Shown here in pieces: positions 9,737 to 11,241 of a stretch of DNA of 11,425 nucleotides. The DNA comes from a virus. Taxonomy: Duplodnaviria; Heunggongvirae; Uroviricota; Caudoviricetes. Made by a program: the position numbers and the translations under genes. The notes under the pieces were generated by a model. It did no database searches, had not been told where the DNA came from, and saw only the letters and a list, made by a program, of their open reading frames with translations. Each line of letters opens with the position of its first letter. Within the stretch, counting starts at the first letter, position 1. The stretch lies in IMG/VR virus record IMGVR_UViG_2695420523_000016. The stretch is one strand, 5' to 3'.

Positions 9737-11241
9737 TGTTCTGGAAGAAGAAAGAAGAGAAACAACTACAGCCAGTACCAAAGAAACTACGTCAGCGTAA
9801 TGCACAATCCAGTACATTGAAGAAAGATATTCAGGCAGCACGTAATACGTCAGTAATGAATTTTGGGTTCAATACAAATACGGGAAGTAATATTAACTTT
9901 CTGTTGATGAAAGCGTTACCTACATTCCGTGCTTTTAGTCGTGATGCAATTTTGAAAAATCCGATAGGTCGTAAGTATATGAACCTTTCGGTAGATGGGG
10001 TAGTGGGTAGTGATGGGGTATATGTAAAACCCGCCGTAGAACTTGAACAGGATGATGCAGTACTTAACGAGATTAACCAGCAGTTAGAAAAACTGTTTGA
10101 CCGATGGGCATACAATCCAGACCGCTTTAGCATCGATGGAGCATTGAGTTTCGACTTATTCCAGCAGACGGTTGAAAAGATACGCGTTCAGGATGGCGAG
10201 TGCTTCATTAGAATCCATACAAACAACGGACAGATTCAAATTGAAATTATCGATGCTGCACGATTAATACAGCTTAATAATCAGTTCTTGTCTAATGGTA
10301 ACTATATTAGCAACGGTATTGAGTTCGATAAGTACCATCGTTCTGTGAATTATTATTTTTGTACGTTTAATCCTGTTACTTATCAGTTCAATACAAGTGA
10401 TTATGAGATTGTTCCCGCAAATGAAATTTGTCATTACTTCATTGCCGACATACAGGGGCAGGAACGGGGCATTCCCGATATGGTTGCTACCAGTAAATTA
10501 ATGACCGACTTACAGAACTTCACTGAAGCGGCACTAACCGCAAAGCGTGTGAGTGCGTCCAGTATGGCATTTATCACGAACAACAGTGATACCTCTCAAG
10601 TAGATCTCATTGATGACAATCGTGAGGAAGTTACTCCTGTCTATACAGAGTACTTTGAAGCGGGATTCATCGGTGAACTTGGTGAAGGGCAGGATATTAA
10701 AACGATTACGCCAACAAATGGTGTCGATGGGATTGATATTTTCACGAATGAATTGATGAACCAAATCAGTATGGGTCTGAACGTCACTAAGCAAGCCCTA
10801 TTATCTGATACCTCTAATGCATCATTCAGTGCAGCACGACTTACAGAAAAACTCCAGGCTACGACATTCCGTACCAGAACAAATGTACTCATCAGTAAAG
10901 TACTGAAGCCAATTTATGCCGCATGGCTGAAAAATGAAATGCTACATAATAATACATTAAAACTGAGTTTCTCAGATTTTGATGATCTTATTTGTGCTCG
11001 TTTTATCTCTCAGAAACCAATCAGCCTTGATCCAGTGAAGGATATTCAGGCTGAAGTAATGCAACTCGATGCAGGTCTTAAATCCAAAACACAGGTTATC
11101 GCAGAACTTGGCGGTGATCCCGTGAAGGTATTAGCGGAGATCGATAAAGAAAAAGAAGAGGGTAATGACTCCAACTTATTGATAGTGTTTTATGTTCAGA
11201 TAATGCCCGATGACTTTGTCATGCAGCTCCACCGATTTTGA
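9736..11241 (+). pseudogene. Lambda-family portal protein (gpB-like), 3'-truncated by IS1 insertion at 11161; the last 27 codons of the ORF are IS1-derived
   Basis: [28 protein letters not shown] matches the conserved N-terminal motif of lambda-family portals. The likely true start is the ATG at 9736 (GGAG 9 nt upstream) rather than 9721. The reading frame crosses into the IS1 IRR at 11161 and ends at 11241; about 475 native codons remain against roughly 533 for gpB. Confidence 0.7.

Follow-up and report, generated by a model that had tools for sequence, protein, structure and literature searches.

IS1 at the 3' end of a portal gene and a candidate +1 frameshift site in the terminase gene of an Escherichia coli prophage

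A complete IS1 element is about 768 bp long and encodes insA-insB' with a -1 frameshift, and a simple insertion is flanked by an 8-11 bp (usually 9 bp) target-site duplication. Stop-dependent +1 frameshifting, in turn, is described for prfB, the gene for release factor 2 (RF2), with a motif that combines a slippery CUU codon, a UGA stop followed by C, and an upstream Shine-Dalgarno-like (SD-like) element (PMC12421855, PMC3711429), and all CUU-stop +1 cases in RECODE are prfB (PMC10274946). For a phage terminase, translational bypassing has been proposed in Streptomyces phage Hau3 (PMC5009743), and within the literature reached by a search of incomplete coverage no terminase gene was reported to use a +1 frameshift.

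Here we analyze a stretch of 11,425 nucleotides of viral DNA (IMG/VR record IMGVR_UViG_2695420523_000016, hereafter the window), in which a portal gene runs into IS1 and the terminase large subunit gene (terL) is split by a single extra base.

The IS1 junction at the portal 3' end

The layout of the window, as read from its sequence, comprises a block of phage genes between two partial IS1 copies in direct orientation. The features bearing on the portal and the two junctions are the following:

1..126, minus strand: left IS1 copy, IRL (left inverted repeat) end, with its terminus (...GCAGCATCACC) at 126; same orientation as the right copy
113..727, plus strand: accessory gene truncated at its 5' end (227 aa in the intact prophage L008, gene 2267..2950)
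127-11160: A/T-rich phage block of 11,034 bp, bracketed by direct IS1 repeats
6789..7370, plus strand: terminase small subunit gene, terS (phrog_57, E 3e-19)
9206..9736, plus strand: head-tail joining protein of 176 aa (phrog_5774, E 3.6e-11), its stop overlapping the portal start (TAATG)
9736..11160, plus strand: phage-encoded part of the portal gene (PF05136), 475 codons from ATG 9736 or 480 from ATG 9721
11161..11241, plus strand: IS1-encoded tail of the fusion ORF, 26 codons and a TGA stop, from the translation and IS1 identity
11161..11425, minus strand: right IS1 copy, IRR (right inverted repeat) end and 3' part of insB; the window ends inside the element

Both IS1 termini can be recognized, with IRR (GGTAATGACTCCAACTTATTGATAGTG...) running from 11161 and IRL (GGTGATGCTGCCAACTTACTGAT..., as reverse complement) ending at 126, and the window covers 265 nt of the right copy and 126 nt of the left one, the outer flanks of both lying outside the contig. 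The IRR end starts exactly at 11161 (GGTAATGACTCC...), and alignment with IS1 copies located at ugd and yeeO in two E. coli strains shows identity from exactly GGTAATGAC (11161) onward. Window positions 11160-11425 (265-266 nt) and 1-126 both match a single annotated IS1B copy of E. coli G3/10 at 100% identity, and the right copy yields thousands of matches of at least 97% under annotated IS1A/IS1B transposase genes; terminal inverted repeats and internal near-identity, including insB, both identify the element as a member of the IS1 family. A boundary about 24 nt before 11161, as drawn by the top E. coli megablast matches, was rejected as chance similarity of A-rich flanks, since identity runs from 11161. 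At the left end, homology to the intact prophage L008 starts at window position 127 (junction at L008 2349/2350), and the element has removed the first 28 codons of the 227-aa accessory gene, the listed ORF (113..727) beginning at a TTG inside IS1. With direct IS1 repeats around it, the 11,034-bp block could recombine out or act as a composite unit.

The ORF at 9721..11241 (506 codons) encodes a lambda-family portal protein (Pfam PF05136, Phage_portal_2; E 1.7e-57, 195.6 bits against a cut-off of 32.9, profile positions 16-342 of 354), and the order terS, gpA-type terL, connector, portal and protease/capsid expected for this family is found in the window ORFs and in the intact prophages L005 and L008. 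The true start is probably ATG 9736, which overlaps the upstream stop codon; the NCBI annotation of the 500-aa intact form uses the equivalent start. A first-pass annotation of the window had described this ORF as reading directly into the IS1 IRR at 11161 and as owing its final 27 codons to the element. Both statements are borne out: identity to IS1 begins at exactly that base, and the 27 codons consist of 26 residues and a stop (11239-11241), antisense to insB.

The length of the lost portal tail can be read from intact relatives. A protein search returned 189 of these, nearly all of 490-515 aa. The closest intact portal (P0001, 97% identity) extends 25 residues beyond the junction, as does an intact group at 81% identity from E. 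coli, Scandinavium and Dryocola (502 aa in E. coli and Scandinavium), and an alignment of 50 homologues (45-81% identity) reveals 18-31 residues (median 25) beyond the junction position in every one of them. The window portal, without this C-terminal tail present in 50/50 homologues, is not full length. Across the junction, L008 reads ...GATAAAGAAAAAGAAGAG|AATATTAAC..., followed by 25 portal codons (NINKEVNQNGNQEQEEGANDPPTGD) and a stop. No homologue ends at 11161, and a natural portal stop before that position can be set aside. Alignment to intact portals, the check proposed by the first-pass annotation, consequently upholds the truncation but not its extent: only 25 codons are missing, on the evidence of L008 and 50/50 homologues, and they form a variable acidic tail, so that the annotated loss of about 58 C-terminal codons is more than twice the actual one.

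That estimate probably goes back to lambda gpB, which at 533 aa is longer and only distantly related, and it fails because the portal family found here is about 500 aa long rather than 533 aa. Lambda gpB (PF05136; PDB 8K38 series) belongs to the same Pfam family as the window portal, but its similarity to this group is distant (E 4.6e-06, C-terminal third only) and the C-terminal tails of the two are not alignable; homology to gpB and to two other solved portals (8GTD and 8VHX) stops near residue 479 of the intact homologue, exactly where the junction lies.

The homologue tails are rich in E, N, T, G, D, S and Q, with hydrophobic residues almost absent, and bear a nearly invariant E-G motif in a stretch that overlaps the start of the capsid gene. 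In an AlphaFold2 model of an intact homologue (mean pLDDT 68) the last helix spans residues 467-486, and pLDDT falls below 50 from residue 484. The conserved portal fold is retained, including the last predicted helix to about six residues from its end, because IS1 sits in the extreme 3' tail of the gene. By this model, the element removed a probably disordered tail together with about six helix residues and added 26 mostly hydrophobic ones.

We are highly confident that IS1 lies in portal codon 476 (counted from ATG 9736; codon 481 from 9721) of a siphovirus-type E. coli prophage, with a 25-codon tail replaced. The element abuts this codon and probably transposed into it. A 25-residue acidic, probably disordered portal tail is thereby swapped for 26 largely hydrophobic IS1-coded residues, and the conserved body is left untouched. 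Relative to the intact gene order, IS1 also parts terS, terL and portal from the whole set of head and tail genes and, by analogy with classical IS1 polarity, may be polar on that set unless late transcription is antiterminated. Phage antitermination, as established for lambda N/Q, could suppress such polarity. Under a simple insertion, the far side of the element would consist of the IS1 IRL, an 8-11 bp duplicate of ...AAAGAAGAG and then AATATTAACAAGGAAG... (AATATTAACAAGG), with the capsid and tail genes beyond; alternatives to simple transposition would be a composite unit or an adjacent deletion caused by IS1.

Such an event is routine and mechanistically nothing new. Classical IS1 insertions of E. 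coli, in operons and in IS-disrupted lambdoid remnants, share with the window a canonical IRR, an A/T-rich target within a coding region, a short read-through fusion tail and downstream genes cut off from their upstream context. Unlike those cases, the window insertion falls in the extreme 3' tail of the gene (its last 5%). The junction matters for annotation only, as a loss of 25 codons and not 58.

Uninterrupted counterparts and the extent of the prophage

Intact counterparts (L008-L011, all E. coli contigs) were found by exact-protein look-up of the window terL fragment. Window positions 127-11160 align to L008 2350-13383 without gaps at 99.96% identity (4 mismatches in 11,034 bp), and the block is 100% identical to L011 over 6.9 kb. 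No full-length 11-kb counterpart emerged from a near-identity search of plasmids, phages and complete E. coli genomes, and a genome-contig scan with the portal returned only two loci. In the intact prophage, a gene for a 598-aa fusion of prohead protease and major capsid protein (MCP; Peptidase_S78 + Phage_capsid) overlaps the portal 3' end, its ATG (L008 13409) lying 25 nt downstream of the junction. Next come two small connector genes and then genes for a 917-aa fibre, a major tail protein (Phage_tail_3), chaperones and a tape-measure protein. Exact-protein look-up places the fusion portal on one contig only, present in two samples, and intact 500-aa portals of the same 90% cluster on hundreds of contigs from E. 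coli and Klebsiella. To judge from these comparisons, the IS1 event is recent and lineage-specific, because the 11 kb otherwise match uninterrupted prophages apart from four substitutions.

The first-pass annotation took the region for a prophage remnant. On this reading the 11-kb block would be all that remains, the IS1 copies being end-points of IS1-mediated adjacent deletions or the arms of a composite unit, and the genome would have lost its head and tail genes as well as the 3' end of the portal. The two IS1 copies do bracket the block in direct orientation, and relatives in G3/10 and AREA_C483 are heavily IS-ridden. Moreover, IMG/VR UViG_2695420412_000018 is the same IS1-bounded contig (11,240 bp, 100% identical), and no other viral contig of IMG genome 2695420412 carries the L008 portal 3' end, capsid or tail sequence: exact 32-40-mers of the L008 portal 3' end, capsid and major tail genes have no match in the other contigs of that genome held by IMG/VR, which comprise viral-called contigs only. 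This restriction to viral-called contigs makes the silence weak evidence, however, and with only four substitutions separating the block from intact prophages any decay must be very recent. The contig ends are also what ordinary repeat-induced assembly breaks would produce; the source record (L004; GCA_966507045.1, CBJXOF010000075.1) is a contig of 11,281 bp that ends inside IS1 on both sides. The absence of downstream genes from the window means nothing, because short-read assemblies break at repeats such as IS1. We regard a remnant as a real but somewhat doubtful possibility; it is the contig boundaries, and not biology, that keep the rest of the prophage from view. A chimeric phage-IS1 join in a genome whose portal is intact would fit a short contig with a multicopy repeat at both ends, but is very improbable given a junction that lies 265 nt inside the contig, with IS1 identity starting at the terminal base of the element as in real insertions, and that is shared by the window, GCA_966507045.1 and IMG 2695420412, three assembly records of which the IMG/VR contig is independent.

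The wider prophage family (L005-L079), with terS, gpA-type terL, lambda-type portal and fused protease-capsid genes, is known from prophages and metagenomes only and is widespread in enterobacteria; among the cultured phages of INPHARED, the best TerL identity is 36%. A related prophage of E. coli G3/10 (L003; NZ_CP060075.1 3420308-3440038) is integrated in ybhA, next to a gene of the serine recombinase family. Its terL is cut by IS3 but has no interruption at the Walker B site, an IS1B copy lies nearby, and Hcp, DUF1493, an STM2901-family gene, RipA and DUF3800 are among its accessory genes. L009 matches the window block at 99.96% identity, and its fused protease-capsid gene (11217-13013) is broken into ORFs of 106 and 417 aa; some copies of this prophage decay independently, as L009 does.

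Among the accessory genes of the window, an HNH endonuclease gene (PF01844; 2559-3287) adjoins a gene for a DUF6998 protein (3288-4079) that matches, at E 3.4e-61, the PADLOC model mREase_II for a type II methyl-directed restriction enzyme. Other E. coli chromosomes carry the same two genes at 82-92% identity, and together they probably form an anti-phage defence cassette of the prophage. A 236-aa ORF on the minus strand (1616-2326), located between the left IS1 and the HNH gene, has no Pfam or PHROG family and a weak match to a Csm6-like PADLOC model (E 2.7e-4).

The split terminase gene

The terL gene is distributed over two reading frames:

7414..7806, plus strand: terL segment in the 0 frame, from the Walker A region to ...CRMVLL (PF05876 GpA_ATPase, profile 14-134); an alternative start at 7390 gives 139 aa
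7797..7810, plus strand: candidate +1 frameshift cassette GGTG-TTA-CTT-TGA-C (GGTGTTACTTTGAC), from alignment with G3/10, L006, L007 and L012
7808..9193, plus strand: terL segment in the +1 frame, with Walker B, the rest of the ATPase (PF05876, profile 134-247) and the gpA nuclease domain (PF20454)

Comparison with the intact relatives G3/10, L006, L007 and L012 locates the split at 7804-7810, where the window has one extra T. The window and L005 read GTG TTA CTT TGA CGA and the intact genes GTG TTA CTT GAC GAA, so that a slip from CTT to TTT restores V-L-L-D-E-V, the Walker B motif. The extra T creates CTT TGA C at the only in-frame CTTGAC of the 1,776-nt gene. The heptamer (window 7804-7810) is identical in L005, L045, L062, L064 and L008-L011, and a set of 68 IMG/VR relatives includes four with a frameshift at this site (L041, L045, L062 and L064). 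The allele is common: the exact 131-aa N-fragment occurs on 128 contigs and the exact C-fragment on 152 (E. coli), N-fragments ending in ...CRMVLL are found also in Klebsiella (193 contigs) and Enterobacter kobei, and the identical split gene is carried by prophages whose head and tail modules are complete (L008, L010 and L011). A sequencing error as the source of the extra T was discarded, the identical allele being present in hundreds of independent assemblies.

The site is found in two diverged clades, one comprising the window, L005 and L045 and the other L062 and L064, with intact lineages between them. L062 and L064 share 79% (N part) and 72% (C part) nucleotide identity with the window, and their nearest N-part relative, L037, is uninterrupted. 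Recent gene conversion was considered for the site common to the window and L005 and gave no clear signal, with a 56-nt identical stretch at 5% divergence (P ~0.06, a rough estimate). For L062 and L064, short-tract transfer of the allele is possible, the site region being more window-like than the rest of the gene. Elsewhere in terL, two IMG/VR relatives at about 63% TerL identity (L074 and L075) have two other +1 frame breaks, near TerL residues 156 and 525, and L049 and L057 have -1 breaks near the N-terminus.

Selection on the two halves was assessed with Nei-Gojobori counts between pairs of frameshift-bearing sequences. Between the window and L005, the N part differs by 16 synonymous and 2 nonsynonymous changes (omega 0.03) and the C part, read in the +1 frame, by 60.5 and 22.5 (omega 0.086, p 3e-23), the other two frames giving omega values of 2-3; these values resemble those of the portal (0.073) and terS (0.08), and the two sequences show zero indels in 4.4 kb at 5% divergence. 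Between L062 and L064 the counts are 10/0 in the N part and 52.5/19.5 in the C part (p 3e-20), and over all pairs both halves are under purifying selection (omega 0-0.09). Upstream of the slippery codon, a purine/G-rich GGUG element 3 nt from CUU, at the spacing found in prfB, is kept in all frameshift-bearing lineages; its predicted SD-like duplex, at -5.4 kcal/mol, ranks in the top 9% of the gene's 12-mers and is weaker than that of prfB (-10.7). A TerL made as two separately initiated polypeptides was rejected: in four of the six sequences that bear the frameshift, the +1 frame offers no ATG, GTG or TTG ahead of the Walker B Asp-Glu, so that a separately initiated C-fragment bearing Walker B is not available.

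Taken on sequence evidence, the terL site is, in our assessment, somewhat more probably than otherwise a functional, conserved, programmed (or compensatory) +1 ribosomal frameshift of the RF2 type (CUU UGA C) in Walker B. The main rival, which we hold to be unlikely, is a plain inactivating mutation that leaves the packaging module dead irrespective of IS1. It has in its favor that one extra T splits terL into two ORFs, that the closest relative (L012, 97%) and about 55 others are uninterrupted, and that the SD-like element is weak beside that of prfB; the family also has no cultured phage to prove viability, and the near-identical L009, with its broken protease-capsid gene, indicates that some copies decay. 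Against it, the extra T makes exactly CTT TGA C, at the single in-frame CTTGAC of the gene, and the site has been kept in two clades separated by intact lineages, with overwhelmingly synonymous change and no indels in both halves. The allele also sits on hundreds of contigs in three genera alongside intact portal, capsid and tail genes. The first-pass annotation had taken the frameshift, together with the portal truncation, to suggest a non-functional packaging module; a split allele that is widespread together with intact head and tail genes, and whose halves are both under purifying selection, is poor evidence for this.

Comparison with known recoding systems

If the terL site is recoded as proposed, it would take stop-dependent CUU-UGA +1 recoding beyond prfB for the first time, and a phage would have adopted an RF2 signal thought essentially private to that gene as a means to set or regulate the dosage of its terminase. 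The amount of the packaging ATPase-nuclease would then depend on host RF2 activity, and an N-terminal fragment of 131-139 aa would also be made. Hundreds of database entries annotated as two "terminase fragments" or as pseudogenes would be wrong, and prophages of E. coli, Klebsiella and Enterobacter that carry the allele may be viable.

Two phage systems offer partial parallels. The Hau3 terminase resembles the terL case in its proposed dependence on recoding, but the mechanism put forward there is bypassing at a UUA codon. The tail assembly chaperone G/GT is, like terL, a phage late gene with non-standard decoding, but there a -1 shift yields two useful products; neither system uses a stop-codon-dependent +1 shift. 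There is also a likeness to prfB, which has the same heptamer, CUU UGA C, and a shifted frame that encodes the essential remainder of the protein; the host is E. coli in both cases, and the shift is known to work with its tRNA-Leu and RF2. The two differ in that the prfB site lies near the N-terminus and the terL site inside Walker B of a phage terminase large subunit, and in that the SD-like AGGGGG of prfB is much stronger than the GGUG of terL. In contrast to prfB, no autoregulatory logic is evident for terL, where the shift would instead couple the yield of TerL to the RF2 activity of the host.
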